A stretch of 64,000 bases of DNA from an uncultured Anaeromyxobacteraceae bacterium (GCA_964573455.1 CAZNJW010000003.1:571-64570); one strand, 5' to 3'. Positions 3,036-44,332 are shown, numbered from the stretch's first letter. Numbers and translations are program-made. The notes: generated from the letters alone by a model not told the origin.

Positions 3036-3106
<71 letters not shown>

Positions 3107-18440: not shown

Positions 18441-18469
18441 GCCCCTTGTCCCCGAGGAGTACAGTCCAT

Positions 18470-18665
18470 CGTTTCCGGGCAGGTCTCCTGGCTTGGGGGG
18501 AACGGCCGTGGCCGAAAGTTCTTCCGCCTTCCCGGCAGGTGCCAGTGGCATTCCGGAAGAACCCTGGAAAATCCTCCCCCGTCACAGTGGCGGGACCGCG
18601 CGGGAATCACACCCGCTTCCCTCTCCGGGACGCATCGCGTCCACCCGGAAAGAACGCAGCAACGG
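18470..18665 (-). promoter_or_regulatory. Cobalamin (B12) riboswitch in the 5' leader of the btuB-like operon
   Basis: The minus-strand read contains the conserved core AGGGAAGCGGGTGTGATTCCCGCGCGGTCCCGCCACTGTGAC. It also contains ...GCCACTGGCACCTGCCGGGAAGGC... and a B12 box AAGCCAGGAGACCTGCCCGG (about 18474..18496), ending about 35 nt before the ATG. Confidence 0.85.
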
Positions 18666-25993: not shown

Positions 25994-27781
25994 CTATTCG
26001 GTCTGAGCCGGCTGTTCGGGAGCGGGGGGCTGTGCGGCGGCAGGAATTTCAGCGGGTTTGGCGGCTTCTTCGCGGGCGCGTTCTTCTTCGGAGATCTTTT
26101 TCGTCAGCGCCTCGAGTTCAACCAGTTCGCCGGACGCCGCGGCACGGGATCTGAGGTTTTCGTACCACTCACCCCACATGGAAAGGCGCTTGAAAATACC
26201 GAGTTCGGCCGCCACGGCCTCGATTTCCTGTTCCGTCGGCTCCACGCCGGAAACCGAACCTTTGAGCCTTATCACGAACACGCTGCCGCTGCCCTCGGGT
26301 TTGACCGCCCTGGCCAGAACGCGCGACTCGGTGGTCAAACCGGCCAGTTCATCGATTAAGCCTTCCTGGTTGCCGATTCCCGGCACCACGGCCGGGTTGA
26401 AGTCCATCATGGCCTCAAGCGTGGCAGGAACGGCCGTAATATCGCCGGTTTCGCCGATCCGAATCGGTGAATGCGGCGCGTACTGCGCGTTGAGACCGGC
26501 CGCGATTTCGGACAGAGCCGCGTCCGGAGCGGCCTGCATCGCGGCGATCGCCCGCGAGGTCAGGTCATCGAGACCGGCGGCGACCTTCTGCTCGCCGATC
26601 AGGCGGCGCGCAATCAGTTCAAAGGAACGGTCGAAGTCGGGATCGACCTTCGGACGGCGAATATCGAGCATCACCAGGAACCAGCCCCTGGCGCTGCGAA
26701 TCACCGGAGAAAGCTGCATCTCGACCAGACCTTCCATCGCACCGGCAACCTCGGCGCCATAAAGCGTGTCGATCGCCTCGGGGGTAAGCGCGGTCATCGC
26801 CCTGCCACCCAGCGACCTGGTCGTCTCGTCCTCGGAGCTGGCCCTGGCCATGGCCTCGATGGCGTCGCGCAGTCCGACGCCGGAGTATCCCTTCAGCGCG
26901 TCCGCGGCGGCGTTGGCCCTGGCCTCGTCGGAGAACTGGACGATGTGGAAATCGTAACCGGCGTCCACCGCGAATTCGTTCCTATGCTCCTCGAAGTACT
27001 TCAGGGCTTCTTCCCTGTTAGCCTTCATCCACGCGGATACCTCGCGCTGGGAGCCGACGAGCGCGGCCGAGAGCAGCGCAGGCGACAGTTCGAGGAACTC
27101 GTAGGAACGGACGTTCTTGCGCTGCGCGGCCACGAAACGCGCCTCGCGCGGAGGAACGACCTGGGCGGCGGTGACGAGTCCGATCATCTTTTCACGCTCG
27201 ATCTCGCGCGCAACGAAGTCCTCGAACTCCGGGAACTTGACGTTAAGTTCGTAACGGACCCAGTTCTGGTAGCCCTGGGCCTTGAATTCGCCGGTCGCCG
27301 GATCGGAGAAACGCTTCACGATCCGTTCACGCACCTCTTCCGGGGTGGCGATCAGGCCGTTCTTCCTGGCCTCGTTCGAAACGAGCCAGGTCTCAATCAT
27401 GTCATCGGCGACCTTACGGTACTTGGTCATCGAGACCTTGCGCGGGTCGGTGCCGAACGCGATGAACCGGCTGTCCCCGGGGAACATCTGGAAACGCGTG
27501 CGCATGTACTGCATGGCCTGCTGGATCATCTCACGCGACGGTTCCTGTCCCGGGTAGGGGGGATCCATCGTGAGACGCAGGCCCATCTCGAGATCCTTCG
27601 AGTCGATTACGGTGTCCCCGACCTTCACCAGTTCAACGGTCTCGGGCGCTGCCATGCTGCCGTTTCCACCGCCCGTGCGCGTACCCATCATGTTGAATGA
27701 CAGGATGAACACGAAGATGATGACGCCGAACAGGACATAGATGATTACTGATTTCGAGTGTTTTCTAAGCTCTGCAAGCAT
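25994..27781 (-). CDS. ppiD: PpiD-like membrane-anchored periplasmic chaperone/peptidyl-prolyl isomerase
   Basis: MLAELRKHSKSVIIYVLFGVIIFVFILSF (N-terminal anchor), then a long SurA-N-like region and a degenerate parvulin segment. ATG 27781 (AGGAG 7 nt upstream) is preferred to the track's TTG 27808. Confidence 0.75.
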   Translation of the reverse strand: MLAELRKHSKSVIIYVLFGVIIFVFILSFNMMGTRTGGGNGSMAAPETVELVKVGDTVIDSKDLEMGLRLTMDPPYPGQEPSREMIQQAMQYMRTRFQMFPGDSRFIAFGTDPRKVSMTKYRKVADDMIETWLVSNEARKNGLIATPEEVRERIVKRFSDPATGEFKAQGYQNWVRYELNVKFPEFEDFVAREIEREKMIGLVTAAQVVPPREARFVAAQRKNVRSYEFLELSPALLSAALVGSQREVSAWMKANREEALKYFEEHRNEFAVDAGYDFHIVQFSDEARANAAADALKGYSGVGLRDAIEAMARASSEDETTRSLGGRAMTALTPEAIDTLYGAEVAGAMEGLVEMQLSPVIRSARGWFLVMLDIRRPKVDPDFDRSFELIARRLIGEQKVAAGLDDLTSRAIAAMQAAPDAALSEIAAGLNAQYAPHSPIRIGETGDITAVPATLEAMMDFNPAVVPGIGNQEGLIDELAGLTTESRVLARAVKPEGSGSVFVIRLKGSVSGVEPTEQEIEAVAAELGIFKRLSMWGEWYENLRSRAAASGELVELEALTKKISEEERAREEAAKPAEIPAAAQPPAPEQPAQTE

Positions 27782-27866
27782 TAATGGGCTCCTGGGATCA
27801 AAAGACAAAAGCGGCAGGAGTTTACTTCAAACAGAAAGGCTGTGCAACACGCCCAAATGCCCGGCA

Positions 27867-29093
27867 TCAAACATCTTCCAGCAGATGTCCCATCCGGGAT
27901 TTCTTCGTCTCCAGGTAGACCCTGTCCCGCTCGCCCCTTGGGGGCAGCTCGATCCTGACACGTTCAACCACATCAAGGCCGAAACCGGACAGGCCCACTA
28001 TCTTTCTGGGGTTGTTGGTCAGCAGTCTGAGTTTCCTGAGACCGAGGTGTGCCAGGATCTGGGCTCCGGTGCCATATTCCCTGAGATCCGGGGCGAAACC
28101 GAGGCTGGTGTTCGCGTCCACTGTGTCAAGACCGCTGTCCTGAAGGGCATAAGCCTTGATTTTATTGGCGATTCCTATGCCGCGCCCCTCCTGCCTGAGG
28201 TAGAGCACGACACCGCCCTCGGCGGCCACGCGTGCCAGGGATGCGTCAAGCTGCAGGCCGCAGTCGCACCTTCTGGAGTGGAACACGTCTCCGGTAAGGC
28301 ATTCTGAATGGACGCGCACCAGGGTCGGACCTGGTCCGATCTCGCCCCTGACCATGGCCACATGGGCGATGCCGCGAACCGTGTCCTCGTAAACCACGGC
28401 CCTGAAGCGGCCCCACTCGGTTTCGACGAACGCAGAACCGACCGCCCTGACCAGAAGCTCCTTCTGCATCCTCCAGGCGATCACGTCGGCCACGGTCACG
28501 ACGGGGATATTGTTGTCACGACCGATCCTGACCAGTTCATCATGGCCGGCAGCGGAACCGTCGTCCGACAACACCTGGCATATCACCGCCGCGGGCGTGC
28601 GTCCGGCCATCCGGCACAAATCCACCGACGCCTCGGTCTGACCTGCCCTTGCAAGCACGCCACCCGGAACCGCCCTGAGCGGAAAGACGTGACCGGGAAC
28701 CACGAAATCGCCCATGGTGGCCTTCTCGTCGCACAGGTCTTCTATCGTACGCGCCCTGTCGAACGCGGAGATGCCGGTGGTCGTCCCGACCCTGGAGTCG
28801 ATGGACACGGTGAACGCCGAACCGAAATGCGCCGTGTTCCGGCTGGCCATCATCGGCAGTCCGATGCGGTCAACCATCTCGTGCGACATCGCCACGCATA
28901 CCAGGCCGCTGGCTATCTTGGTCATACGGTTGACGGACTCGGGAGTAACTGTGTCGGCGGCGAAGATCAGATCGCCTTCGTCCCCGCGATCGCGGTCGTC
29001 GACGACGATCGCCATCCCACCGATACGAATGGAATCCAGGGCCTCGGCCACGGTCACCGCTTCCTGTCTGTTGCCATCAGTGCTGGCGGACAT
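27867..29093 (-). CDS. ribBA: Bifunctional 3,4-dihydroxy-2-butanone-4-phosphate synthase / GTP cyclohydrolase II
   Basis: The last 408 aa of the 729-aa track ORF. Motifs [49 protein letters not shown]. Start at ATG 29093. Confidence 0.92.
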
Positions 29094-29185
29094 AAAGACA
29101 CCCTCGACGACAGTTTCGTTGGTCGCGCCGATGCCCGGCGGACCGGCCGAATGATGACAGCCAATCATAGCCAAGTCAACGCGAC

Positions 29186-29214
29186 GGGGGACGGGAACAG
29201 GGACGGGGACAGGG
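29186..29214 (+). other. G-quadruplex-type motif G5-N2-G3-N4-G3-N2-G4-N3-G3 in the ribBA/tolQ divergent intergenic region. It is C-rich on the ribBA leader strand.
   Basis: GGGGGACGGGAACAGGGACGGGGACAGGG read directly. It explains the PVPVPVPVP run in the spurious extension of ORF 27867..30056. Confidence 0.5.
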
Positions 29215-29284
29215 AGACGTCGGGAATGCCGAAGCTCAGACGAAGCGCATGCTCTGCACGCGTTTCGGGTGCCCCGACCATAAA

Positions 29285-29293
29285 TGCTATAAT
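29285..29293 (+). promoter_or_regulatory. Extended -10 element TGcTATAAT, candidate tolQ promoter
   Basis: Perfect TATAAT at 29288..29293 with a TG at -15/-14, 35 nt upstream of the tolQ ATG. The -35 element is weak. Confidence 0.45.
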
Positions 29294-29327
29294 CGCGACC
29301 CGGGCCTGGCCCGATGTGGAGGTTCAG

Positions 29328-30035
29328 ATGGACGGCGGGGTTACGGAATCTTTCGGCATCAACGTATTCGAACAGGTGATCGCATCCAGGGGGATGGTTC
29401 TTTTCGTCCTGCTGCTGCTGATTTCCATGTCGCTGGTCTGCTGGTTCATCATCGGCGTGAAGGCATGGGCCTTCAGGAAGATGCGGAAGCAGACCGAGGA
29501 ATTCATCAAGGCGTTCTGGCACGCGCAGAACCTGGACGAGGTTCGCGAGTCCGCACGACGCCTGTCTGATTCGCCTGTGTCGCGCATGTTCTCGGCGGCA
29601 TGGACCGAGATGAAACGCAACAAGGACGGCCAGGGTTCGAGCGGCCCGATCGGCGGGGAGTCCGACTTCGGATTCCAGAACGTCGAAAGAACCCTGAGAC
29701 GCGCAGTGCAGGAAGAGACCACCAGGCTTGAAAAGCTGACGCCCTTTCTTGCAACGACGGGCTCGGCCGCTCCGTTCATCGGACTGTTCGGCACGGTCTG
29801 GGGCATCATGAACGCCTTCGCATACATATCCCCGGATCGTCCGGTCCTTGAAACGGTGACCCCGCATATCGCCCAGGCCCTGGTCGCGACCGCAATCGGC
29901 CTGCTGGCCGCCATCCCGGCGGTCATGGCGTTCAACTACTTCAACTCGAAGATTCGGGTACTGGTCGTGGAGATGGAAAACTTCTCGATCGATTTCCTGA
30001 ACATCCTGAAACGCCACTTCTTCAGGGAGCGCTGA
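29328..30035 (+). CDS. tolQ: TolQ (MotA/TolQ/ExbB proton-channel family)
   Basis: The C-terminal 235 aa of track ORF 28308..30035. Three TM segments, with [26 protein letters not shown] and [30 protein letters not shown]. Confidence 0.88.
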
Positions 30036-30073
30036 CGGCAAGGAGCCGAGCGGCACCGGTACTGGAGGTTTCG

Positions 30074-30655
30074 ATGGGAATGGGCAGTAACGGCGGCAAC
30101 CGCGGGATGATGGCCGACATCAACGTGACGCCGCTGGTCGACGTGATGCTGGTTCTGCTGATCATCTTCATGATCTCGTCGTCAATCGAGACCATGCAGG
30201 TCCAGCAGGAGAAGCAACGCATCGAAAAGACCACGAACGACCAGGATCTGGACAGGAACGTTCCGGTCAATCTGCCGAAAACGAACGCGGAACCGGTGAA
30301 CCTGGCCGAAGAACAGAAACTGGTGCTGTCAATCACACCCGACGTCAGATTCTACCTGGGCGAGACGATGATCCTCGACTGTCTGGCCATTGCTCCCGGC
30401 ATCAAGGATACGGTTACCGGAAAATCCAGGCGGACCTGGGGTGCCGAGGATGACACGGCATTCATCCCCTGCCTGGACTCGCTTGTGAAGAAACTGGAGC
30501 CGAACGCGAAGTTACAGGCCGACAAGGAACTCTATCTTCGGGCGGATCGAAGCCTCCCGTATGGCCTGACCCTGAAGGTCATGGCCAGGATCAGGGCCGC
30601 CGGGATCGGCAAATTCGGTCTGGTGTCGGACTCCGAACCCGTTGTGGAGCAGTGA
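30074..30655 (+). CDS. tolR: TolR (ExbD/TolR family) with an extended periplasmic domain
   Basis: [21 protein letters not shown] motif. GGAGG RBS. Confidence 0.85.
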
Positions 30656-30664
30656 TGCAGGGCC

Positions 30665-31603
30665 ATGGCGCGGGCGCGCCGGAAGGGTGCTGAAACGATG
30701 GAATGGCTGGACAGGGCTACGGCTGCTCTTGGCCTGCCGGACAGGAACACATTCCTGACCGGTCTGGTCCTGACCGTCGTGATCCACGTGTGCATCTTCA
30801 CCATGCTGGCGACAGCCGGGGGCACACCTGCCGATCCACTCGATCTCCTGATGGCCGGGACCCGTCGCATGTGCGGTGACCAGCGCTGCGCCGAGGCCCC
30901 GTTCATGTCCCTTCGGCGAGGGCCGGATTCCACGGACGGAATGGACACAGGCATCATCGAGGCGTCGGTGATTCCCATGCTCGGGATGGCGAAGAAGCAG
31001 CCGGGACAACTGCCCAGATTCCAGAAATACGAGCAGGCCGAGACCACCGAGGAAGCTGTCAACATATCGAAAAAGAACGAAAAGACCTCCGCTGTGGACA
31101 ACAAGGAAGTAAAACCTAAGAAGGCGGAACTGGATCGACGCCGCAAAAACAAGGATCTGGGCGACATTCTCGGCAACGCCCCGCGGGTTGACGATCCCAG
31201 GGCCAGCGCGACCGCGCTCGATCGCATCATCGGGTCCGAGCTTGGTTCGGTGCATGGCAGCGGCACGGAGTTCCGCGAGGGGAGCGAGTATGGCGCGCGG
31301 GTCGGCGAGGCGATTCGGAGCAAATTCACGGTGCCGCCGTACCTGACCGATGCCCAACTGAAAAAGCTCAATGTAATCATAAAGATTACTAAGATAAGCG
31401 CCGCCGGTCAGATCATTGAATTCAAGGTTGAACGGCTGTCGCAAGACAACAATTTCAACAACGCCGCCCTTTACGCGATCAAGAGGTTCTCCTCGAAGGA
31501 CGGCGGCAACGCATACCTCCCATCACCAGATTCGAAGACGCTCGACCTGGTCAACCGGCGCGGCATCACGGTCGAACTGAACGGCGCCCTCTTCAGGAGA
31601 TGA
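30665..31603 (+). CDS. tolA: TolA-like energy-transducing protein (N-terminal anchor, Lys/Glu-rich linker, TolA/TonB-C-like domain)
   Basis: TM segment FLTGLVLTVVIHVCIFTMLA, charged linker KKNEKTSAVDNKEVKPKKAELDRRRKNK, C-terminal YGARVGEAIRSKFTVPPY.... Positioned between tolR and tolB. Confidence 0.65.
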   Translation: MARARRKGAETMEWLDRATAALGLPDRNTFLTGLVLTVVIHVCIFTMLATAGGTPADPLDLLMAGTRRMCGDQRCAEAPFMSLRRGPDSTDGMDTGIIEASVIPMLGMAKKQPGQLPRFQKYEQAETTEEAVNISKKNEKTSAVDNKEVKPKKAELDRRRKNKDLGDILGNAPRVDDPRASATALDRIIGSELGSVHGSGTEFREGSEYGARVGEAIRSKFTVPPYLTDAQLKKLNVIIKITKISAAGQIIEFKVERLSQDNNFNNAALYAIKRFSSKDGGNAYLPSPDSKTLDLVNRRGITVELNGALFRR

Positions 31604-31604
31604 C

Positions 31605-33002
31605 GTGACGGACACGACAGCGAATCGACGCGTCGGGACGGTCATCGTCGCGGCACTGATCGCGGGCTCAATCGCGGGCGGAGCCGCGCCAGCCCTGGCG
31701 CGTCCGGAAGTTCGCGCGTCTGAGGGGCCGATGCCCGCGGATACGAGATGCGGCGAGTTCGGGTGGGATCCGAAAATCCAGGCTACCGTACCGGTCGCGT
31801 GGCCGCTCATCATGGATCTGTCGGCCAGAGGCGCCCTTGCCGTGGAGTCGGCCAATCTGGCTGACGCCATCGCGATGCAGTTGAGGATGACGGGTTCGTT
31901 CTCGGTGCTGCCGCGCGACGCTGCGCCTTCGGGCGGGGCGATAACGTGGATTTCACCGCTGGCCTTCGACTACCTCGGATGGCGTGAGGCCGGCGCATGG
32001 ATGGTCATCACCGGCGAGCTCGACCTGGAAGACGACGGCCTGGCCAGATTGACCATGTCGGCCTATTTGACCGAGGAAGGAGACGTGCTGCAGATGACCG
32101 GCACGTCCGCATCCATGCCGGTCGCGGATCTGGTCACGTTCGGGCGCCGGTTCGTCGACTCGATCACCGCGTGCGTGACCGGCTGTCCCGGGATGCTCTT
32201 CACCAGGATCGTGTACGCCAGGAAGGCGCCCGGCACGACCAAGGAAATCTGGATGACCGACGTCGGATCGGGCCTCCAGGTTCAGATCAGTTCCGACGGA
32301 TCTCTTGCCGTGCTCCCCGCGTGGGGACCGGGAGGCGCCGTGGCCTGGACTGGATACTCGGCCGGAAACCCGGATCTCTATCTCGATAAGAAACTCTTCG
32401 GTTCGAGACCAGGGCTGACCACCGGCGTCTCTTTCGCCCCCGATGGAACAGTTGCCGCCCTGGCATGGGGTCACGAGGCATCCACGGACATATACCTGGT
32501 CGATCCCATTTCCGGCAGGACTGGCAAACGCCTGACTTCCGGCAGTGGCGACAACATGAGCCCGTCGTGGTCACCGGACTCGAAGAAGATCGCCTTCGTC
32601 TCGGACAGAAAGGGATTCCCGACCATCTTCACGATGGACAGGGACGGAGCCAGCCAGCGGGCACTCCCGATTGCGGGAAACTACAACACCGGCCCGGACT
32701 GGTCGCCCGACGGGACGCGTATCGCCTGGCAGGGCCGGGGTGAAGGCGGCCGGTTTTCGATCTGGGTGCTTGATCTGGCGACAGGCCAGGCCAGAAGAGT
32801 CAGCCGCGGAGGGTTCAACGACGAGGAGCCGTCCTGGTCGGCCGATGGGAGATTCATCGTCTATACGTCCACGCGGAACGGCAGGAAGCGACTCTATGTA
32901 ATGAAGGCTGACGGCAGTGACGCGACACCCGTTTTCAACGACGATGCGGAGTACTTCACACCTGCATGGGAACGACGGATTCCGTCAATAAAGAGCAGGT
33001 GA
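31605..33002 (+). CDS. tolB: TolB periplasmic beta-propeller protein
   Basis: Repeated PSWSPDSKKIAF, PDWSPDGTRIAW, PSWSADGRFIVY propeller blades. GTG start after AGGAGA. Confidence 0.88.
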   Translation: MTDTTANRRVGTVIVAALIAGSIAGGAAPALARPEVRASEGPMPADTRCGEFGWDPKIQATVPVAWPLIMDLSARGALAVESANLADAIAMQLRMTGSFSVLPRDAAPSGGAITWISPLAFDYLGWREAGAWMVITGELDLEDDGLARLTMSAYLTEEGDVLQMTGTSASMPVADLVTFGRRFVDSITACVTGCPGMLFTRIVYARKAPGTTKEIWMTDVGSGLQVQISSDGSLAVLPAWGPGGAVAWTGYSAGNPDLYLDKKLFGSRPGLTTGVSFAPDGTVAALAWGHEASTDIYLVDPISGRTGKRLTSGSGDNMSPSWSPDSKKIAFVSDRKGFPTIFTMDRDGASQRALPIAGNYNTGPDWSPDGTRIAWQGRGEGGRFSIWVLDLATGQARRVSRGGFNDEEPSWSADGRFIVYTSTRNGRKRLYVMKADGSDATPVFNDDAEYFTPAWERRIPSIKSR

Positions 33003-33046
33003 CGGTTACGGCCACGGCGGGCCGGGCCGATACGGGAGGAATTCAG

Positions 33047-34360
33047 ATGGGGGATACTTTCGGAAGACACCGAACCACGCGGACGCCGGCACTGCTCGGG
33101 GCACTCGGCGCGGTCGAGGCGCCTCAATCCGTTGACCATGACGGCGCGTTTCCGATAGTCATCTCGGCGGCCAGGGGCACGCGTGTCAAGGATGCGGATC
33201 AGAACCGCTACCTGGATATGACCTCGTTCTTCGGCGCTTGCCTGGCCGGGCACCGACACCCGGCGGTTATCGGCGCTGCAAGAAAGGCTGTAGGAACGCT
33301 CGTCCACACCATGGGAGACGTGTTTCCGGATCAGTCGAGGGGCGCGCTGCTGAAGAAGCTGCAGTCGTTGATGCCCACCCCTGATTACAAAGGTCACCTG
33401 TCGTTGAACGGGGCGGACGCGGTGGAGACTGCCCTGAAATTCGCCGCAGCTTATACCGGAAGGGGGGGCGTGATCTCATTCGAAGGCGCCTACCATGGTC
33501 TGTCCGCCGGGGCGCTGGAGGTGACCTGGCGCCAGGATCTGAAGACCGCCTTCGCTCCATGCCTGTCAGGCAGGGCCGTTTTCGCCCCATGGCCGGCGAC
33601 GGACGGATCCGACATGGACGCCGTGCTGTCCAGGGTGGAACAACTTGCGGGCACCACGATCATGAACTCGTTCGGGGCCGACATTGGAAGGCCGGGGGCG
33701 CTGATCGTGGAGCCGATACAGGGAAGGGGCGGTATCAGGGTTCCCCCTCCTGGTTTCCTGAGCGCCCTTCGCGATATCTGTTCCAGACACGACATCGTGT
33801 TCATCGCGGATGAGATCTACTGCGGCTGCTTCAGAACCGGAACATTTCTGGCGTCCGAGTCCGACGGGGTCGCGCCGGACATCGTCTGCCTTGGAAAGGC
33901 GCTTGGAGGCGGCTTCCCGATATCGGTGGCGATGATGCGCGACGAAGTGGCGGCGGCTGTTGCCTCGTCAAACGGGGAAGCTGTCCATACATCGACCTTC
34001 ATGGGATGGCCGGTCTCCTGCCAGGCGGCGATCGCCAGCATCGTCGCTCTGGAGAGGATGGCGCCGGCGGCGCGGGCCGGAACGATCGAGGCCCGGATCA
34101 GGCAGAAAGGAGATCTCTGGATCGAAAGGTTCGATTTCGTCCAGGGCATCCGAGGACGAGGCGCGATGCTCGGGATTTCGGTCACGCCCGGGACCGCGAT
34201 GAAGATCGCCGCTCAAGCGCTTCGAAACGGCGTCATCGTACTCCCCGAGGGATGCGGTGACGACGTGGTGGCGCTGACGCCGCCGTTGCCGATCTGCTGC
34301 GGCGACCTGGACAACGCTCTGAAAATACTGGAAGAGACATTTGAAACGGTACAGTTATGA
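33047..34360 (+). CDS. Class-III (omega-type) PLP-dependent aminotransferase
   Basis: AEGAYHG-like FEGAYHGLS, DEIYCGCFRTGTFLASE, PDIVCLGKALGGGFP (PLP-Lys). ATG 33047 after GGGAGGA. The track ORF starts earlier, at 32966. Confidence 0.85.
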   Translation: MGDTFGRHRTTRTPALLGALGAVEAPQSVDHDGAFPIVISAARGTRVKDADQNRYLDMTSFFGACLAGHRHPAVIGAARKAVGTLVHTMGDVFPDQSRGALLKKLQSLMPTPDYKGHLSLNGADAVETALKFAAAYTGRGGVISFEGAYHGLSAGALEVTWRQDLKTAFAPCLSGRAVFAPWPATDGSDMDAVLSRVEQLAGTTIMNSFGADIGRPGALIVEPIQGRGGIRVPPPGFLSALRDICSRHDIVFIADEIYCGCFRTGTFLASESDGVAPDIVCLGKALGGGFPISVAMMRDEVAAAVASSNGEAVHTSTFMGWPVSCQAAIASIVALERMAPAARAGTIEARIRQKGDLWIERFDFVQGIRGRGAMLGISVTPGTAMKIAAQALRNGVIVLPEGCGDDVVALTPPLPICCGDLDNALKILEETFETVQL

Positions 34361-35430
34361 ATGAACGGGACTCGGGCAGCATGATCAGGACGTTGATTGT
34401 CCAGGCCGCGTCGAATCCGGCCGGCCTTGACGACAGAATTTTCGCCGACACGGCCATTAAGATCGCCGGGACTCAGGGCCGTCTGAACGGTCTAAGGCCA
34501 TTGACCGGGGAAAGGCTGGGGCTGGACGCGATCGACCCGCTCCCGGAGACGGCTTTCAAAATGATGACCGTCGCGACCTTTCCGCCGTCCGAGGCGGTAG
34601 CGGAATTCCTCACATCGGGCACCACGTCGGGAAACCGCGGTCGGCTGCTTGTACGCGACATGGATCTGTACCGACTGTCGGCCGTTGAAGGTTTCCGGCT
34701 TTTCGGGATGTACGGTGACGCGCCTCGCCGGTTCCTGAGCCTGATTCCGGGCGCATCAGCCAGACCGTCGTCCTCGCTGTCGTGGATGGCCGACTTTGTG
34801 GCCGGCGCGTTCGACGACACCGGAGGCAAATTCGTGGCCAGTGACGGCTCGCTTGACGGCGGTTCGGTCCTGGAGACGCTCGCCCGGTCGCGCAGTAGCG
34901 GTGAACCGCTGTTCCTGCTCGGAACGTCGCTCGATTTCCTGGCTCTCTTCGATTTCCTCGCGTCCCAGAAAAACGCCCCGGTTCCAGCACCGGGAAGCAG
35001 GATGATGCACACCGGCGGCGCCAAGGCTTCGGGGCGCGAGATCACGCGCGAGGATCTGCGCGAGAGGGCCGGGACGCTTCTGGGAATCCGGGAAGAAGAC
35101 GTCATAGAGGAATTCGGGATGACCGAACTGTTCTCGCAGGCCTACGACTCACCTGTGGTGACACCGGGACCGCGACGACTGGTTCCCGTTCCATGGATGC
35201 GCACGAGGGTTCTGGACCCGCGCACCTTGACGGACGTTCCCGATGGTGCCCGTGGACAGCTCGTTCATTACGACCTGGCGAACGTCGACACATGCATCGC
35301 GCTGATCGCGGCCGACACGGCCACCAGGATCCACAACGGATTCGCCGGCATCTCAAGGTCGGCCGGCGCTGCGACGCGCGGATGCTCGCACGAGGCTGCG
35401 TCGTCGGTGAGGGAATGGAGAACTCGATGA
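34357..35430 (+). CDS. LuxE-family acyl-protein synthetase / acyl-adenylate-forming enzyme
   Basis: Size and motifs of the LuxE family: FLTSGTTSGNRGRLLV (adenylation P-loop analogue), MMHTGGAKASG, EEFGMTELFSQAY. ATGA overlap with the aminotransferase stop. Confidence 0.72.
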   Translation: MNERDSGSMIRTLIVQAASNPAGLDDRIFADTAIKIAGTQGRLNGLRPLTGERLGLDAIDPLPETAFKMMTVATFPPSEAVAEFLTSGTTSGNRGRLLVRDMDLYRLSAVEGFRLFGMYGDAPRRFLSLIPGASARPSSSLSWMADFVAGAFDDTGGKFVASDGSLDGGSVLETLARSRSSGEPLFLLGTSLDFLALFDFLASQKNAPVPAPGSRMMHTGGAKASGREITREDLRERAGTLLGIREEDVIEEFGMTELFSQAYDSPVVTPGPRRLVPVPWMRTRVLDPRTLTDVPDGARGQLVHYDLANVDTCIALIAADTATRIHNGFAGISRSAGAATRGCSHEAASSVREWRTR

Positions 35431-36626
35431 AGACCGCGACCGCCGACATCCTGCGCGAAATCAGAGACGGCTGGCTGGCGTCCGTGTCAGTCGACAGCCT
35501 CGTCCCGGGGCCATTCCTCGAATCCGGAGACGTGGCAAGACTCGAGGAATCGACCGGATGGAGCGGCGCACACCTCGCCGAGGCGGTGCGAAGAGCGTTC
35601 TCTCCGTTCTGCGACAAGGACCTGTCTGGCATGTGTGAGGCCGGCCCAGGGTCGAACGCCGGTCTGGAAATGCTCGCGATCCTCGCCGGACGCGTTCCGG
35701 CGCTCGCAGTCAAGGTCGCTTTCCACTGCGCGGCCGCCGGAGTCCGTGCCGCGATCAAGCCATCATCGCTGGAACCGATCTTCGCCGGGCTTCTGGCAAA
35801 ATCATTCAGTCGGGTCGGCGGGGACGATTTCGTGTCTCTCGTACCGCACGACCGATCGCAATCGACGGATTATGTCGGAAAAGCCCCCCTGTGCCTGGTA
35901 TACGGTTCGGACAGAACGGTATCGACGGTGATCGCCGCGCGGTCAGGAAAGCCAACGTTGACCGGACCTCACATGGAGTCGTTCGCGGTCGTGTTCGCGT
36001 CGGCGCTATCCACGTTCGAACAGGCCCGAAAGGTAGCGGAGGATATCGCCGTTGACACGGTCGTCTACGACCAGGACGGCTGCCTCTCTCCGGTTGCCGC
36101 GCTTGTCCAGGAAGGCGGCGCGGTCACGGTCGTCAGGTTCGCCGAGATGATCCTCGACGCGATGCTCGCCACGAACCTGAAGCCTGGAAGGCTCGAAATC
36201 GACGACCTGGCCGCTCTTCGGATGTTCGAACGCGAGGCGGCGCTTTCCGGCAATATCGATTCCGTCATCCGTTCGAGCGTCGGGATTCCACCGCTGGTCG
36301 TCCTGTCCGACCACGTCAGACGCGGACCCGGGATGCGCACTCTGCAGATAGCGCCCTTCGCTCAAGGGGTCGACTCCATCCCGGATCTGACCGCAATCGT
36401 CGGGCACATCGAGGGCAGGGTCCAGGGCCTGGCCGCTGCTGGCCGCCCGGATCAAATCGATGCCATGTTGAAGGCTTTCCCGCGATTCAGCCCGAACTAC
36501 CTGTGCGAGCCGGGCCGCATGCAGGACCCGCCCGCCCTGTGGAACGAAAACGGATACGTTCTTTACCGGGAACTGATGAGTCCGATCAACGCGACGGTGA
36601 AAGGGCCGATGCCACGGCCGTCTTGA
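35427..36626 (+). CDS. LuxC-family acyl-CoA/acyl-protein reductase (aldehyde-forming)
   Basis: The C-terminal 399 aa of track ORF 35193..36626. Catalytic-Cys motif VVYDQDGCLSPV, comparable with the LuxC QxACSSP motif. ATGA overlap with the luxE-like stop. ATG 35415 is an alternative start. Confidence 0.72.
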   Translation: MKTATADILREIRDGWLASVSVDSLVPGPFLESGDVARLEESTGWSGAHLAEAVRRAFSPFCDKDLSGMCEAGPGSNAGLEMLAILAGRVPALAVKVAFHCAAAGVRAAIKPSSLEPIFAGLLAKSFSRVGGDDFVSLVPHDRSQSTDYVGKAPLCLVYGSDRTVSTVIAARSGKPTLTGPHMESFAVVFASALSTFEQARKVAEDIAVDTVVYDQDGCLSPVAALVQEGGAVTVVRFAEMILDAMLATNLKPGRLEIDDLAALRMFEREAALSGNIDSVIRSSVGIPPLVVLSDHVRRGPGMRTLQIAPFAQGVDSIPDLTAIVGHIEGRVQGLAAAGRPDQIDAMLKAFPRFSPNYLCEPGRMQDPPALWNENGYVLYRELMSPINATVKGPMPRPS

Positions 36627-36659
36627 AGCCCCGCGGGCGGGAACGCTGCGACGGGAACC

Positions 36660-39047
36660 TCACATGCCCAGACCGGCGGTCTCCGCTTCCTCGGGGGGCG
36701 CCACGGGCGTGGGCTCGGGCACGTCTGACTCCGTGCTGTCGTCCGTGATGGGGGTCGCCATCACCAGGCTGAAGTAGTCGCTTTCCCAGTGAACCGTCTC
36801 GACCTTCCACGAACGGATGTTCTCAAAACCGCTGACGCCCTGTTCACGCAGTGCCTTCGTCTCCTTGTCGAGGGACGACTTCAGGCTGGAGGCCCGGTTC
36901 GGCTGTGTCAGCGCGAAGAAACGGTATCCGTGGTTCAGGTCTTCAAGATACGGCTTCAACTGGGTCGCCTTCATCAGCGGCTTGATCTCGCTGTGCGTGA
37001 AATAGGTCTCACCGCGCCACGTAATCAGCCACGCCACCACGTCTTCCCGGCAGACCCGCTTCGTGTTGTATCCAAGCGAATCGGGAATGAAGCCGAGGCC
37101 GGCCTTCTTAAGCAGCGGAGTGTAGGTGTCCTCGACTTCCGGAGCGTTCGGAAGCAACTCGCAACGCTGGAAGTAGTCCTCGAAAATGTACTTCTGGGAC
37201 CAGGACGGCGACAGCAGTGGCATGTAGAAATTCAGCCCCCACCATGCCAGGACAAGCGAGATGCCCCACAGGGCGGCCAGCCCGCCCTTTCGGAACCGGC
37301 CCGCGAAGATCATCACCACGAAACACACCGAAGCAACCACCAGCCAGGCGGCCAGGAATGTCCTGTACTGTAGCGGCGGGGCCTGAATTATCTTCTGCAG
37401 CGTCGGGCTGGTGTGTCGGTAGAAGGTCGAGTCCTTCCACTTCAGGTCGGTTCCCTCGTTGACGGTCGCATCGGGGTCGTTCGGCAGATGCGTCGGCAGA
37501 GGCCTGTCGTACTTGTATGTGAACATCTGCCTGAATACCTGCATGTCGGAACGGATGAAGAGGCCGACCGACAGCATTATCGCCAGACCGGCAATCGCCG
37601 CGAATCGCGCGATCCAGGAACGATCTTCAAGGAAGTCCTTCACCACCAGCGCCGTGACAAAGATGGTCGGGAACACGGCCGGAAAGATGTAATGGTGATA
37701 TTTGGTCGCCGACAACGTGAACAGTATGTACGAGAAGAATGCCCATACATACAGCATCAGTCTCATCCGCGAACCGGGCGACGCATCCTTCAGACGCAGT
37801 TTCGAGAGACCGAACAGGACCAGCGGGATGAAGGCGATCCATGGGAAGGTGCCGATCGAGAGCCAGCGCATGAAGTGTTCAAACGTGCCGGTGTCGATCT
37901 GGTGGACGCCTGCTCCGAGCCGGTTGAAATGGTCGTGAACCAGGAACCTGTTGTAGAAGCCCATTCCGTGCCGGCAGAACATCCCGACGTACCACGGCAG
38001 CATGACGAGCGCGAAGAAAGACAGGCCACGGCCGAGGTCGAGCCTCTTGAGCAGACGCCATTCACCCGACAGCAGAAGATAGAGAACCACGATGGCGCCG
38101 GGCAGGCAGAAGCCGAGCAGTCCCTTGCCCAGCGTCGCGTACCCGAAGAACATGTACGCGGTCCACAACATGAAACGCCGGATCCAGCGATCCCTGCCCT
38201 CCGGGGTCAGCAGTGTTCCAGCCCGGTACTGGCGGTAGAGCGGAACGAATACCGCGGCCAGAAGCGCGACCGTGGCGAGACCGTACAGGATCGCGTGCAG
38301 CCAGCCGCTCTTCTGGAACAGGAAACCCACGCGTGCGATGCCGCTGAACCTGGCGACGTTCCCCTCTGGGAACAGGTCCAGAGCGACGTTTACGATCTGG
38401 GGCACCGCGGTGGTCAGGAACAGGGCCAGCACCGCTGCCAGCCGGACGAACAATCCACGATTCGACGACTCCAGCCTGGGGGCGTACATCGCCGCGCACA
38501 GGAAGAGCATCCCGACGGTCATCGTGCCCGCATAGGGCAGATCGGACAGGAAGAAGAACATCGGCGCCGTCAGGAGCATGCCGGCGGCCATCAGACCTGT
38601 TTTCCGGTTGAAGATCAGCGACATGCTGACATACGAGACAAGGACGACGATGGCACCGAGGAAGGCCAGGAATATGCGGATCGCCCAGTCTCCGAAGCCG
38701 ACCAGGTGCATACCGATGATGTCGCCGTACATGATCAGGACGGGCTTGGAGAAGAACCACTCGCCGGTCGGGGATTCCCCGCCGATCTTGTCCTTGTAGC
38801 CCCACCACGGCGACAGCGTGTCGTGGTTCTCGAACATGTATCTGGCGGTCTCGCCGTAGTGCGTCTCCCAGCAGTCCCAGAGGCCGAATGATCCGGCCCC
38901 GATAAAGAACAGCAGCGAGGCGACCATGAACACCATCAGACGCACCAGCCATTCATGTCTCTGGCGGCCGCGAACGACGATATCGTCAAAATCGGTGGCG
39001 AGGATCGGGGAAACCGTCCCGACCGGTCTTTCTTCTGTGTTATCCAA
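36660..39047 (-). CDS. GT-C fold glycosyltransferase of the ArnT/PMT (GT83/GT39) type, about 795 aa, with a soluble C-terminal domain
   Basis: First-loop motif GLWDCWETHYGETARYMFENHD, comparable with the DE..YAE..REM motif of ArnT/PMT. More than 12 TM helices. I prefer TTG 39047 (GAGG 6 nt upstream) because ATG 39158 would overlap the upstream gene by 40 nt across an AT-rich stretch. The start is uncertain. Confidence 0.78.
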   Translation of the reverse strand: MDNTEERPVGTVSPILATDFDDIVVRGRQRHEWLVRLMVFMVASLLFFIGAGSFGLWDCWETHYGETARYMFENHDTLSPWWGYKDKIGGESPTGEWFFSKPVLIMYGDIIGMHLVGFGDWAIRIFLAFLGAIVVLVSYVSMSLIFNRKTGLMAAGMLLTAPMFFFLSDLPYAGTMTVGMLFLCAAMYAPRLESSNRGLFVRLAAVLALFLTTAVPQIVNVALDLFPEGNVARFSGIARVGFLFQKSGWLHAILYGLATVALLAAVFVPLYRQYRAGTLLTPEGRDRWIRRFMLWTAYMFFGYATLGKGLLGFCLPGAIVVLYLLLSGEWRLLKRLDLGRGLSFFALVMLPWYVGMFCRHGMGFYNRFLVHDHFNRLGAGVHQIDTGTFEHFMRWLSIGTFPWIAFIPLVLFGLSKLRLKDASPGSRMRLMLYVWAFFSYILFTLSATKYHHYIFPAVFPTIFVTALVVKDFLEDRSWIARFAAIAGLAIMLSVGLFIRSDMQVFRQMFTYKYDRPLPTHLPNDPDATVNEGTDLKWKDSTFYRHTSPTLQKIIQAPPLQYRTFLAAWLVVASVCFVVMIFAGRFRKGGLAALWGISLVLAWWGLNFYMPLLSPSWSQKYIFEDYFQRCELLPNAPEVEDTYTPLLKKAGLGFIPDSLGYNTKRVCREDVVAWLITWRGETYFTHSEIKPLMKATQLKPYLEDLNHGYRFFALTQPNRASSLKSSLDKETKALREQGVSGFENIRSWKVETVHWESDYFSLVMATPITDDSTESDVPEPTPVAPPEEAETAGLGM

Positions 39048-39118
39048 CGTGGACCTCAAAGACACAAATCGCGCGAATTTTAACGGGTTGAGCAGAATTT
39101 GCAAGGAAGGCCGGAGTA

Positions 39119-39577
39119 TCAGGAACGCGCGACACCGACAAGCCACCATACCAGCCACGCTGCCGCGAACAGGTATGGGATGAACCCGAGACCGCGCGTC
39201 CGTGTCCAGAAATCGGACAGCCTTTCAACGCGGCCGGCACCGGAAACAAGGGTAAGCAGCAGCCTGACAGGCAGGGCGAGGACGGCCGCGATCGCCAGTG
39301 TGGCCACGAACGGATGGATGTTGAAGGCTGTGGCGGGATCCAGTCTGGCCAGGGCCTGAAGAGTATGCACCGTGCCGCATCCGGGACAGGGATGTCCGGT
39401 CAGCAGCCTGAACGGACAGATCACCGGAAACGACGAAAATGAGCTTTCAGGGATGATGTATACAATGACGGCGAACGCGAGGCCGGAAAGGAAGAACCAC
39501 CACCGGGAAAAAAGCCGCGCGAGCTGAACGATGGCGCGCCGACCACATGCGTCGAGCCGGGAAGGAAACACGGACAT
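39119..39577 (-). CDS. DUF2752-family membrane protein
   Basis: Hallmark CPFRLLTGHPCPGCGTVHT motif plus flanking TM helices. Confidence 0.75.
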   Translation of the reverse strand: MSVFPSRLDACGRRAIVQLARLFSRWWFFLSGLAFAVIVYIIPESSFSSFPVICPFRLLTGHPCPGCGTVHTLQALARLDPATAFNIHPFVATLAIAAVLALPVRLLLTLVSGAGRVERLSDFWTRTRGLGFIPYLFAAAWLVWWLVGVARS

Positions 39578-39587
39578 CGGTTGCGGC

Positions 39588-39956
39588 CTAGCGCCGAAGG
39601 GGAAGACCGTTGCTGTCCTTGATCTGGCCGACCGCGATCAGGATGAAGTCAACGAGCCACCAGATGCCGCAGCCACCACCGGTCAGAAGTTTGACGATAC
39701 CCAGACCGATGTGGCCCAGGTAGAACCGGTCGACCCCGAAATAACCGAGGAAGAGCGACAGAAGCAGTGCCACCAGCCATTCCTTGGTCGAGAACAGCGC
39801 GGGGATGGAGGAGAGCTTGAACCACGCGCCATCAGGTTTGCGGACCATCGTCTCGGAGTTGACCTCGCCGCGCATCAGCATGCTGGAAAGGTCCTGCATC
39901 GTGTAGGGTCCCATCTCGACACCGCGGATCATCGCAAAGTAGCTTTCCATTTCCAT
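39588..39956 (-). CDS. GYF_2 (DUF4339)-TM2 domain protein
   Basis: N-terminal GPYTMQDLSSMLMRGEVNSETMVRKPDGAWFKL (GYF-like), then the TM2 motif FLGYFGVDRFYLGHIGLGIVKLLTGGGCGIWWLVDFI. Confidence 0.8.
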   Translation of the reverse strand: MEMESYFAMIRGVEMGPYTMQDLSSMLMRGEVNSETMVRKPDGAWFKLSSIPALFSTKEWLVALLLSLFLGYFGVDRFYLGHIGLGIVKLLTGGGCGIWWLVDFILIAVGQIKDSNGLPLRR

Positions 39957-40273
39957 TGGAGTGACTCCTGTTCAAACAAGCCGCCGCAACACATCCCGGG
40001 GTCAAGACCATTCGGGAACGGTAACGATAATCCGGGATTGACTGAGTGATTCTAGCCCAATACATGGCGCACTGGAAGAAGTGTTAAGAAATTTTTAATG
40101 ATGTTAAACACCGGTAAAAGTTCCATTCCCGCGGGGGCGCGCCCCTTGACTCCACAACGGCCAGTGTCCAGACTTCAACCCGTCGCGCCGGGAATTGGTG
40201 CGCCCGTGATGCCCCAGACGGGTTTACCGGTGGAACAGACCGGATTGATGAAAGGATTGCTTGGAGGCCTCCA

Positions 40274-41263
40274 ATGGAACAGGACGTTCGGGTTCTCACA
40301 GAGATGGTTCGAAAGGAGAGCGAATTCGTTGATCGACTGACCTCCGAGGTCGGACGCGTGATTGTCGGTCAGAAGGACCTGGTGGATCGCATACTGATCG
40401 CCCTGCTTTGCCGCGGTCACGTTCTGATCGAGGGCGTGCCGGGCCTGGCCAAGACTCTGACCGTCAAGACGATCGCCCAGACACTCGATTCGTCCTTTGC
40501 AAGGGTTCAGTTCACGCCCGACCTTCTGCCAGCCGACCTGACCGGAACGCAGATTTACAACCAGTCGGCGCAGACGTTCTCGGTCCGCAAGGGCCCCATC
40601 TTCGCCGGGATCGTGCTGGCCGACGAGATCAACCGCGCCCCGGCCAAAGTCCAGAGCGCCCTGCTGGAAGCGATGCAGGAACGCCAGGTGACGATCGGCG
40701 ACAAGACCTTCCCGCTGCCCGAGCCTTTCCTGGTGCTTGCCACGCAGAATCCGATCGAGCAGGAGGGAACCTACCCGCTGCCCGAGGCTCAGATAGATCG
40801 ATTCATGCTGATGGTGAAGGTGACCTACCCGACCAGGGACGAGGAACTCCAGATCATGGATCGCATGGCCCTTTCGACACCGGCCAGTGTCGGCAAGGTT
40901 CTCGGGGCCGACGAATTGAACAGGGCACGCTCGATGATGTCCGAAATCTACATGGATCAGAAGGTCAAGCAGTACATCGTCGACATCGTGTTCGCCACCC
41001 GCGACCCGGAGGCGGCGGGCGTCAAGGATTTGGCGGGCTACGTCAAATACGGCGCATCCCCGCGCGCGACCATCGCCCTGTCGGAAGCGGCAAGGGCCCA
41101 CGCCTTCCTGCGCCACCGCGGTTATGTGATCCCCGAGGACGTGAAGTCGGTAGGTCTCGACGTGCTGCGGCACAGGGTAATCCTGTCCTACGAGGCCGAG
41201 GCGGAGAACCTGTCCGCCACGGACGTTCTGAACCGGATCTTCGATTCGGTCCAGGTGCCGTAG
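40274..41263 (+). CDS. moxR: MoxR-family AAA+ ATPase
   Basis: GHVLIEGVPGLAKT (Walker A), ILADEINRAPAKVQSALLEAMQE (Walker B/sensor), LATQNPIEQEGTYPLPEAQIDRF. GGAGG RBS. Confidence 0.92.
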   Translation: MEQDVRVLTEMVRKESEFVDRLTSEVGRVIVGQKDLVDRILIALLCRGHVLIEGVPGLAKTLTVKTIAQTLDSSFARVQFTPDLLPADLTGTQIYNQSAQTFSVRKGPIFAGIVLADEINRAPAKVQSALLEAMQERQVTIGDKTFPLPEPFLVLATQNPIEQEGTYPLPEAQIDRFMLMVKVTYPTRDEELQIMDRMALSTPASVGKVLGADELNRARSMMSEIYMDQKVKQYIVDIVFATRDPEAAGVKDLAGYVKYGASPRATIALSEAARAHAFLRHRGYVIPEDVKSVGLDVLRHRVILSYEAEAENLSATDVLNRIFDSVQVP

Positions 41264-41281
41264 TCCACACGGGGCGGTGAA

Positions 41282-42208
41282 ATGAAGACGGAAAAAGACC
41301 TGCGAACACTGTTATCCAGAGTCCGCCGGATCGAGATCACGGCTCAGAGACTGGTCAACGAACAGTTGTCCGGGCGATACCACTCGGTATTCAAGGGCCG
41401 TGGCATGAGCTTCGACGAGGTGCGCCCGTACACGCCCGGCGACGAAGTCAGGATGATCGACTGGAACGTCACCGCCAGGACCGGCGAACCGTATGTGAAG
41501 CGCTTCGTCGAGGAACGTGAACTGACCATCATGATCCTTGCCGACGCATCCCTCTCGATGGACTTCGGCCTGTCGAGCTTCCCGTTCATGGAGAGGCACG
41601 GCAGTGTCGCGGTGGCTGATACGAAGCGTGAGCTGGCCGCACAGATCGCGGCCGCGATCGCGCTTTCGGCCCAGATGAACAACGACAGGGTCGGCCTCAT
41701 CACTTTCGGCGACGAGGTGACCAGGTTCATCCCGCCGCGCAAGGGGCGCAGACACGCGCTTCACGTCATCAGGGAAGTCCTGACGATGGAGGCGGCAGGC
41801 AGCACCACCGATCTGGGTGGCGCGCTCGATTACCTGGGTCGGGTCCTGAAGAAGAGAACGGCCGTGTTCATTCTGTCGGACTTCGAGGTGCCCTCGTTCG
41901 AGTCCCAGTTGAGGGTCGCCGCCAGGCGCCACGACGTGCACGGCATGGTTGTTCGCGACCACTTCGAGGACAACCTGTTCGAAGGCGGCATCGTGACCAT
42001 CAGGGATCAGGAGACGGGGGCGCTCGTCCCGGTCAGCACCGATCGCTCCTTCCTGGAACGTTACCGCGGCGAGGTCGCAAGACACCTCGACGAGGTCGAG
42101 ATGGTGTTCAGGCGTCAGAGATTGCCGCTCTCACGGTTCTCCACTTCCGAGCCCTGGGATCGGACGCTTTCCGCTCATTTCGCGCGCCTGAAGGGGAAGG
42201 CACTGTGA
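41282..42208 (+). CDS. DUF58 protein (MoxR-associated, VWA-like fold)
   Basis: GRYHSVFKGRGMSFDEVRPYTPGDEVRMIDWNVTAR is the canonical DUF58 motif. Positioned after moxR. Confidence 0.85.
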   Translation: MKTEKDLRTLLSRVRRIEITAQRLVNEQLSGRYHSVFKGRGMSFDEVRPYTPGDEVRMIDWNVTARTGEPYVKRFVEERELTIMILADASLSMDFGLSSFPFMERHGSVAVADTKRELAAQIAAAIALSAQMNNDRVGLITFGDEVTRFIPPRKGRRHALHVIREVLTMEAAGSTTDLGGALDYLGRVLKKRTAVFILSDFEVPSFESQLRVAARRHDVHGMVVRDHFEDNLFEGGIVTIRDQETGALVPVSTDRSFLERYRGEVARHLDEVEMVFRRQRLPLSRFSTSEPWDRTLSAHFARLKGKAL

Positions 42209-44317: not shown

Positions 44318-44332
44318 CCACAGGAGAGAAAG

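Follow-up and report, generated by a model that had tools for sequence, protein, structure and literature searches.

The window analysed here is a stretch of 64,000 nt from an uncultured Anaeromyxobacteraceae bacterium (GCA_964573455.1, CAZNJW010000003.1:571-64570). Its plus strand carries, at positions 33047-36626, three genes that were recognized from sequence and Pfam matches as a class-III aminotransferase, a LuxE-like protein and a LuxC-like protein, and which follow directly on tolQ-tolR-tolA-tolB. Judged by their predicted active sites, the products of this trio very probably belong to a single pathway that would convert a carboxylic acid via an aldehyde to a primary amine (carboxyl to aminomethyl). 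The three genes and the ribosome-binding site ahead of the first are listed below.

33034-33039, plus strand: Shine-Dalgarno sequence GGGAGG, read from the sequence, in the spacer between tolB and the aminotransferase gene, 7 nt ahead of the ATG of the latter.
33047-34360, plus strand: class-III, pyridoxal phosphate (PLP)-dependent aminotransferase, 437 amino acids (aa); PF00202 (Aminotran_3) over the full length, E 4.8e-87.
34357-35430, plus strand: LuxE-like acyl-protein synthetase, 357 aa; PF04443, 35.2 bits against a gathering threshold of 24.9, E 8.7e-9.
35427-36626, plus strand: LuxC-like acyl-thioester reductase of the aldehyde dehydrogenase (ALDH) fold, 399 aa; PF05893, 50.9 bits against 21, E 1.4e-13.

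An earlier reading of this DNA (the original prediction) had placed three translationally coupled genes 44 nt behind tolB on the same strand, and this arrangement is confirmed. The tolB gene ends at 33002 and the aminotransferase ATG lies at 33047 after a 44-nt spacer; ATGA start/stop overlaps join the aminotransferase to the LuxE-like gene (34357-34360) and the LuxE-like to the LuxC-like gene (35427-35430). The gene identities given there also stand, with matches to PF00202, PF04443 and PF05893 and with all quoted motifs found, as does the lack of LuxD and luciferase (luxAB) domains among the open reading frames (ORFs) scanned in the window. A public gene call has the aminotransferase begin at 32966, which gives 464 aa and an overlap with the 3' end of tolB; the start at 33047 is favoured because of the orthologue alignment and the Shine-Dalgarno sequence. 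The spacer shows no terminator-like site on the plus strand in a terminator scan whose counts are at chance level. The promoter and terminator scan, which covered 27500-40300, is uninformative on the operon for that reason.

The aminotransferase motif LGKALGGGFP includes the PLP-binding Lys284 (33896-33898). The protein has 30% identity to E. coli GabT, and its top sequence matches are γ-aminobutyrate (GABA) and acetylornithine aminotransferases (E 1e-58 to 1e-74); with no NCBIfam model does it attain even half of the cut-off, the highest score being 249 bits against 574. It was aligned to GabT and 14 orthologues. Leu152 (33500-33502) stands at the position of GabT Arg141, Arg227 (33725-33727) at that of Glu211, Ala409 (34271-34273) at that of Arg398 and Tyr258 at that of Gln242. 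Every member examined has Leu for Arg141, Ala, Ser or Thr for Arg398, Arg for Glu211, Tyr or Phe for Gln242 and Phe for Ile50 (GabT numbering), and the pattern is common also to distant members that their sources name Gemmatimonadota and Armatimonadota. The equivalents of GabT Lys268, Asp239, Glu206 and Thr297 are invariant in all members. Relative to GabT, ArgD and ornithine aminotransferase, then, the fold, the PLP-binding Lys, Asp, Glu and Thr and the overall length are shared, whereas the residues at 141, 398, 211, 242 and 50 are all substituted. Because both substrate-binding arginines of GabT are replaced, omega-amino acids and glutamate can no longer be recognised through two arginines. 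The hallmarks of GABA, acetylornithine and ornithine aminotransferases (Arg141, Arg398 and the Glu211 gate, together with a score above the family cut-off) are absent. The placement of the enzyme within amino-acid metabolism, which would have spoken against the original prediction, is thus not what was found: it lies below every NCBIfam cut-off and lacks the carboxylate-binding arginines of GabT and ArgD. An aromatic pocket (Phe, Tyr) with a single arginine fits an uncharged aldehyde as the predicted substrate, in line with the original prediction, and by its residues the pocket does not distinguish an alkyl from an aryl aldehyde. We know of no characterised enzyme with this residue pattern.

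The LuxE-like protein is an ANL/PaaK-type adenylation domain without the C-terminal ANL subdomain. It carries the motif TSGTTSG (TSGTT from 34612), the motif HTGGxK in the form HTGGAK with Lys223 at 35023-35025, and an invariant C-terminal RGCS whose Cys343 (35383-35385) lies 14 residues from the end. Both RGCS and HTGGxK are retained by 14 orthologues and by a set of 30 homologues whose identity falls as low as 31%. The top match in the PDB by sequence is 7xc6_E (LuxE). In the AlphaFold2 (AF2) model (pLDDT 90.5) the nearest folds are PaaK-family enzymes that adenylate aryl or heteroaryl acids. LuxE itself has no C-terminal ANL subdomain and ends in a short tail, TRxxKGCxLS, in which Cys364 accepts the acyl group (PMC9157457). 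The RGCS Cys and the HTGGxK Lys of the LuxE-like proteins match Cys364 and Lys238 of LuxE (PMC9157457). The score against the equivalog model of lux-operon LuxE (NF052244) is 34.5 bits with a cut-off of 550, which does not indicate orthology.

In the LuxC-like protein the motif YDQDGCLSP holds Cys219 (36081-36083), and YDQxGCLSP is invariant among 16 homologues; a cofactor motif KPSS.EP is present. The top PDB profile match is 7xc6_A (LuxC), which is also the best fold match of the AF2 model (pLDDT 87.9) with a TM score of 0.72. The window protein gave no match to the NCBIfam LuxC model NF052251, and neither lux orthology nor a lux context is found. Relatives of the two proteins score 47-70 bits against lux equivalogs with cut-offs of 550 (LuxE) and 750 (LuxC), with 66 bits for the LuxC relatives. 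Close relatives of the LuxC-like protein are few (16 clusters in a word-indexed search, about 20 representative clusters above 250 bits); the wider family counts 268 clusters at E <=1e-30. The LuxE-like gene neighbours the LuxC-like gene in every locus, and in one (L040) the two are fused. Compared with the LuxC-LuxE complex of Photobacterium phosphoreum (PDB 7XC6), which is the top sequence match of the second and third genes and the top fold match of the third, the likenesses are the missing ANL C-terminal subdomain, the tail Cys (in RGCS here, in TRxxKGCxLS in LuxE), the catalytic Cys in a YDQxxC context and the adjacent, coupled genes. The differences are an identity of only about 15%, an N-terminus about 80 residues shorter in the LuxC-like protein, the lack of luxD, luxAB and luxG and the addition of an aminotransferase to the operon. 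The two proteins therefore probably act like LuxE and LuxC, as their motifs suggest, yet they are not lux orthologues, and since they are so far from the true lux enzymes, the family name cannot reveal the substrate.

The sequence of steps that these residues suggest would begin with the adenylation of a carboxylic acid by the LuxE-like protein and transfer of the acyl group onto its own Cys343. The acyl group would then pass to Cys219 of the LuxC-like protein and be reduced with NAD(P)H to the aldehyde, which the class-III aminotransferase would turn into a primary amine. We infer these acid-to-amine steps because the catalytic residues are conserved (the RGCS Cys, the YDQxGCLSP Cys and the PLP Lys/Asp/Glu). 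The same chemical logic was part of the original prediction, and it holds up in that no orthologue departs from the C-terminal Cys of LuxE type, the catalytic Cys of LuxC type or the PLP Lys. The trio chemistry is a new combination of known enzyme kinds. TabE/TabA, TamH and PigE likewise proceed from an acyl thioester through an aldehyde to a primary amine, and TabE belongs to a LuxC-like ALDH group with a class-III enzyme carrying out the amination; those systems differ in that they lie in secondary-metabolite clusters, draw on thioesters of acyl carrier protein (ACP) or CoA and have no LuxE partner. The surroundings of the trio, unlike theirs, are housekeeping and envelope genes and not a biosynthetic gene cluster, and its first gene scores 215 bits against the PigE NCBIfam model, which has a cut-off of 850. 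As the original prediction had supposed, no characterised system with this arrangement was found in the literature. Nothing was found there on LuxC or LuxE with Myxococcus, on the trio in Myxococcota or on PA0974-PA0976. Two papers were set aside: a galactosyrin preprint, which mentions lux merely as a reporter, and a paper on an Aeromonas flagellin island, which concerns another type of cluster with ACP and FabG-like genes.

A genome scan with one genome per species gave 13 related loci, all from uncultured Myxococcota or 'Deltaproteobacteria' metagenome-assembled genomes, and the trio is intact in 13 of 13. The tol genes of the window, assigned from Pfam and NCBIfam matches and gene calls on an identical contig (L142), are the following.

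29328-30035, plus strand: tolQ, 235 aa.
30074-30655, plus strand: tolR.
30665-31603, plus strand: tolA.
31605-33002, plus strand: tolB, with PD40 repeats and TolB_N; TIGR02800, E 3.7e-71.

The trio follows tolQRAB directly in loci of the window type and in L023. Elsewhere tolB and the trio are parted by inserted genes, which are GT28+HEAT plus Glycos_transf_4 genes in L007 and L017, a PMT_2/TMEM260 GT-C gene in L015, and three unknown genes plus a carbamoyltransferase gene in L016. In L009, L018, L019, L022 and L027 the trio stands without tol. Its neighbours are Lnt-melibiase in L009, a TSP3/MopE repeat protein in L018, L022 and L035 (tol absent), RNase II and a radical SAM gene in L019, and AA_kinase-SSB-unknown in L027. 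In L019 an insert of about 2 kb (7883-9902), with no convincing ORF, parts the LuxE-like from the LuxC-like gene. Because tol is absent from some loci and the inserts vary, the trio is the constant unit and tol a frequent but optional neighbour; the linkage to tolB that had been proposed is thus usual in Myxococcota loci and not obligatory. The envelope genes near the trio look like neighbours of tol.

Metagenome contigs were scanned with an aminotransferase profile and the pattern EPIQGRGG, which yielded at least 520 relatives, of which 80 were kept; the ORFs of these 80 loci were searched with profiles made from the LuxE-like and LuxC-like proteins. One or both of the latter adjoin the aminotransferase in 45 of 56 judgeable loci, and 24 more loci are too short. 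With the trio intact in all the genome loci and in many metagenome loci, the arrangement is not due to chance, and the co-conservation asked of it at the outset is found. Both gene orders, aminotransferase-LuxE-LuxC and LuxE-LuxC-aminotransferase, occur. In L040 a LuxE-LuxC fusion of 848 aa (9290-11836) comes after queE and the aminotransferase; fusions of about 790-850 aa are also seen elsewhere (representatives P0335, P0350, P0382 and P0396). In a rough neighbour-joining tree of the aminotransferases, the LuxE/LuxC linkage runs throughout the clade, all other members of which form the sister group of the Myxococcota branch.

When the neighbours in 55 non-redundant loci were clustered, only two recurrent partners appeared outside Myxococcota, a Gfo/Idh/MocA oxidoreductase and a small radical SAM protein. 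The radical SAM protein was identified as QueE, the 7-carboxy-7-deazaguanine (CDG) synthase: against TIGR04349 (cut-off 300) two loci give 306-307 bits and five others 255-293, followed in each case by four further QueE models as the next matches. The queE gene, the sole recurring hint at the substrate, directly precedes the aminotransferase gene, in the same orientation, in 16 loci, of which 15 are non-identical; wherever the spacing was measured it is 7-14 nt. These loci form three sublineages with no more than 53% aminotransferase identity between them.

Sublineage 1: L040, with the fused LuxE-LuxC.
Sublineage 2: L048, L049, L053, L056, L081, L103, L108 and probably the short L096, with LuxE/LuxC.
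Sublineage 3: L050, L058, L074, L085, L093 and L110, 46-67% G+C, with no LuxE/LuxC within 8 kb.

L074 and L085, with 46% and 66% G+C, share the order queE-aminotransferase-ksgA. Searches with E. coli QueC, QueD, QueF, QueA and Tgt gave no match among the ORFs of all loci and of the window; only QueE was matched. The queE-linked and LuxE/LuxC-linked loci are untyped metagenome contigs. In one sublineage queE and the aminotransferase gene are separated by a small conserved ORF of about 85-110 aa with the core MSLRI...ARR...VLLVDQE.G.TFH (among others L048 7563-7877, L049 7626-7964, L103 686-1018), which has no Pfam or NCBIfam match. Four loci carry an insert of about 1.4 kb between the aminotransferase and the LuxE-like gene, with a minus-strand ORF of about 480-490 aa and no family match (for example L049 9157-10596, L056 2815-4293 and L053 9102-10583, all minus strand).

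In queuosine biosynthesis, QueC uses ATP to convert the carboxyl group of CDG, the QueE product, via an amide to the nitrile preQ0, and QueF reduces this nitrile with NADPH to the amine preQ1 (7-aminomethyl-7-deazaguanine). The net change from COOH to CH2NH2 is thus the combined chemistry of QueC and QueF, and queE usually clusters with queC and queD. A queE gene without its usual partners and adjoining the trio is the classic signature of a non-orthologous displacement. The trio of the window may tentatively be assigned CDG as substrate and preQ1 as product, an assignment whose basis is gene context only, in relatives. The trio would then replace QueC and QueF, with 7-formyl-7-deazaguanine in place of the nitrile preQ0. 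That it is a non-orthologous replacement of QueC/QueF working through an enzyme-bound thioester, and so a second, widespread bacterial route to queuosine, is possible and slightly more doubtful. Such a route would lie in Myxococcota and possibly, by a few source-given names of aminotransferases, in Gemmatimonadota and Armatimonadota. The likeness to QueC and QueF would consist in the proposed net conversion of the CDG carboxyl to the preQ1 aminomethyl group at the expense of ATP and NADPH, and it extends to the genomic partners, with queE adjacent in relatives and the post-tol position shared with queEC. There is no homology, QueC being a PP-loop ATPase that forms an amide and a nitrile and QueF a tunnelling-fold nitrile reductase, whereas the proposed route would run through a thioester and an aldehyde and take its nitrogen from an amino donor, not from ammonia. 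In the body of literature searched no mention was found of 7-formyl-7-deazaguanine, and nothing was found that joins deazaguanine or queuosine with LuxE/LuxC.

In a survey of tol-pal from 2025, queEC was reported as a common downstream neighbour in alpha-, beta- and gamma-Proteobacteria and in Acidithiobacillia (PMC12204202). The trio in Myxococcota sits at this position of queEC downstream of tol. In the window, pal and cpoB were not seen after tolB or elsewhere among the ORFs scanned, and the trio occupies the slot held by pal-cpoB(-queEC) in Proteobacteria. The post-tolB position would then be the myxobacterial counterpart of the queEC-after-tol-pal synteny and would be silent on the envelope. 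Because tol-pal followed by queEC is a documented synteny, the Tol linkage is explained without an envelope role. A preQ1 product is preferred over the alternatives because of the adjacency of queE in relatives and the shared post-tol position of queEC. A neutral aryl aldehyde fits the predicted pocket of an aminotransferase that lacks Arg141 and has aromatic Phe and Tyr, and the aryl- and heteroaryl-acid-adenylating PaaK-type enzymes that are the fold neighbours of the modelled LuxE-like protein were counted as favouring CDG as its possible substrate.

Several observations weigh against the assignment to preQ1. Neither queE nor any other que gene is found in the 64-kb window or in the Myxococcota-type loci; the queE link is confined to the other main branch of the aminotransferase tree, the proteins of which share 38-45% (aminotransferase), 30-39% (LuxE) and 25-30% (LuxC) identity with those of the window. 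The association with queE may go back to as few as two or three origins. The third queE sublineage has no LuxE/LuxC within 8 kb, and neither LuxE nor LuxC occurs within at least 3 kb on both sides in 11 of the 56 judgeable metagenome loci, of which four have queE and the rest neither partner; in genome loci such as L028 and L029, too, the aminotransferase stands without LuxE/LuxC and without queE. About 12 loci have, next to the trio, the Gfo/Idh/MocA oxidoreductase (inositol/sugar dehydrogenase type), which either precedes queE or follows the aminotransferase (for example L048 5305-6489, L066 3118-4380, L076, L083 and L109); it fits no role in a preQ1 scheme and is explained by none of the readings considered here. 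An Rfam search gave no match to a preQ1 or other riboswitch around the trio in 21 loci or in the window at 27000-37500, which is weak evidence as preQ1 riboswitches are not universal. Two further approaches were rejected. Identity matrices of LuxE and LuxC cannot settle the substrate in the window because lineages with and without queE are not separated in them, and a link to phage 7-deazaguanine was dropped when viral contigs searched with the aminotransferase profile gave only distant class-III enzymes (no more than 29% identity).

The product favoured in the original prediction was a long-chain alkylamine, made from a fatty acid via the fatty aldehyde for an envelope lipid or lipid anchor. 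This is unlikely, though it has precedents: the sole characterised LuxC-LuxE pair works on myristate (PMC9157457), and in tambjamine BE-18591 biosynthesis the LuxC-like TabE and the omega-transaminase TabA yield an alkylamine. The aminotransferase pocket, with Phe, Tyr and Leu and without the carboxylate-binding arginine, is consistent with such a substrate, and Myxococcota trios lie near tolQRAB, Lgt, Lnt, GT-C, GT28 and GT4 genes. With the LuxE and LuxC equivalog models, however, whose cut-offs are 550 and 750, the trio proteins reach only 35-70 bits, and the 55 non-redundant loci show no recurrent lipid gene beside the trio, be it for an acyl-ACP thioesterase, ACP, an acyltransferase or another lipid function. 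A distant LuxE-LuxC pair in L026, 4 kb from an acyl-ACP thioesterase, was considered as support and discounted, as the aminotransferase of that locus is canonical (Glu211/Arg398) and outside the clade, and an IS110 element lies between it and LuxE-LuxC. The envelope genes vary by locus and are inserted between tolB and the trio, the Tol linkage has its alternative precedent in queEC, and the contexts in other phyla are housekeeping genes (queE, ksgA, priA, thyX). The envelope hints once drawn from Tol and from the convergent ArnT/PMT gene are accordingly not supported, the latter gene being kept only in the closest relatives, and with LuxE/LuxC far from the fatty-acid enzymes, no recurrent lipid gene and a wider family linked to queE, the idea of a fatty amine or envelope lipid is possible and without specific support. 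The glyceroyl-alkylamine lipids of Deinococcus/Thermus were considered as a possible setting for such a pathway; the Thermus PGLN paper names no gene for the alkylamine step.

Another carboxylate, such as a sugar acid or uronate or a small polar acid, could be converted to an amino building block for a glycoconjugate or other metabolite, which is improbable as well. The GT28+HEAT, Glycos_transf_4, PMT_2/TMEM260 and carbamoyltransferase genes between tolB and the trio in some Myxococcota loci point this way. So do an epimerase-family gene in L030 and the sugar/inositol-type Gfo/Idh/MocA protein of some 12 loci, and Arg227 could bind a negatively charged group on the substrate instead of the amino donor. 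Sugar-nucleotide and glycosyltransferase genes, however, are kept with the trio only inside single sublineages, and the queE adjacency is left unexplained. Sugar acids are not known to us as substrates of any LuxE/LuxC-type enzyme, and the sugar aminotransferases of glycan pathways are normally of the DegT family. That the first gene is an ArgD/GabT-type housekeeping aminotransferase merely lying beside a LuxE/LuxC pair is highly improbable and was excluded: although its best matches (E 1e-58 to 1e-74) are of that kind, its score is far under the family cut-offs (249 bits against 574), GabT Arg141 and Arg398 are replaced in every member, ATGA overlaps join the genes, and the linkage outlives changes of gene order and the LuxE-LuxC fusion across deep lineages.

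Around the trio, the window shows in order surA and ribBA (minus strand), tolQ-tolR-tolA-tolB and the trio (plus strand), then a convergent ArnT/PMT_2-like GT-C gene and a DUF2752 gene (minus strand), followed by a MoxR-DUF58-BatA-D operon (plus strand). Two of these genes are specified as follows.

27867-29168, minus strand: ribBA (3,4-dihydroxy-2-butanone 4-phosphate (DHBP) synthase / GTP cyclohydrolase II), antisense to the shadow ORFs described below.
36660-39158, minus strand: ArnT/PMT_2-like GT-C glycosyltransferase, 832 aa; PF13231 (weak), NF009784 E 7e-12.

The ArnT/PMT_2-like gene is kept in L001, L004, L011, L013, L014 and L031 and not in other Myxococcota loci, and is probably outside the module. 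At 27741-30035 (plus strand) lie a 188-aa ORF and, after it, a 575-aa ORF that resembled a TolQ with an N-terminal extension. Both were rejected, since the former and the first ~340 codons of the latter are antisense shadows of ribBA; such shadow ORFs yield tblastn matches even in relatives. The Bat-type operon at 40274-48729 (plus strand) comprises a MoxR AAA ATPase, DUF58, two vWA proteins (one with TPR) and BatD, and adjoins the trio block in the closest relatives too (L001, L004, L013 and L014). RNase II and a large radical SAM gene (Radical_SAM_N2 + DUF2344) are found at 56294-60903 (minus strand), 20 kb from the trio, and immediately upstream of it in L019 (39-4206); a local rearrangement within one synteny block is taken from this difference in distance. 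A cobalamin riboswitch at 18461-18663 (minus strand, 114 bits) precedes genes for a TonB-dependent receptor (16524-18551) and for a Peripla_BP_2 / FecCD / ABC transporter set (12685-15757); together they are probably a B12 uptake operon. A 2864-aa ORF at 3217-11811 (minus strand) carries a Lamin Tail Domain (LTD) and proprotein-convertase P-domains, with a tRNA-Cys (3034-3106, minus strand) just downstream, and a similar LTD/CotH giant (1562 aa) comes after the trio in L009.

Whether the product is preQ1 or a fatty amine, the three enzymes form a conserved module of wide distribution; the active site of its aminotransferase is distinctive, and none of its members is known to have been characterised. 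If the fatty amine were true, the trio would be candidate machinery for making bacterial alkylamine lipids, to which no genes were found assigned. If the role in preQ1 formation were true, the trio would constitute a new branch in a well-studied pathway and a natural acid-to-aminomethyl cascade for heteroaromatic acids, of interest to biocatalysis. It would also be a second queuosine route overlooked by genome annotation, where such genes now go under the names 'aspartate aminotransferase family protein' and 'hypothetical', and predictions of queuosine prototrophy would be wrong for several poorly cultured phyla.

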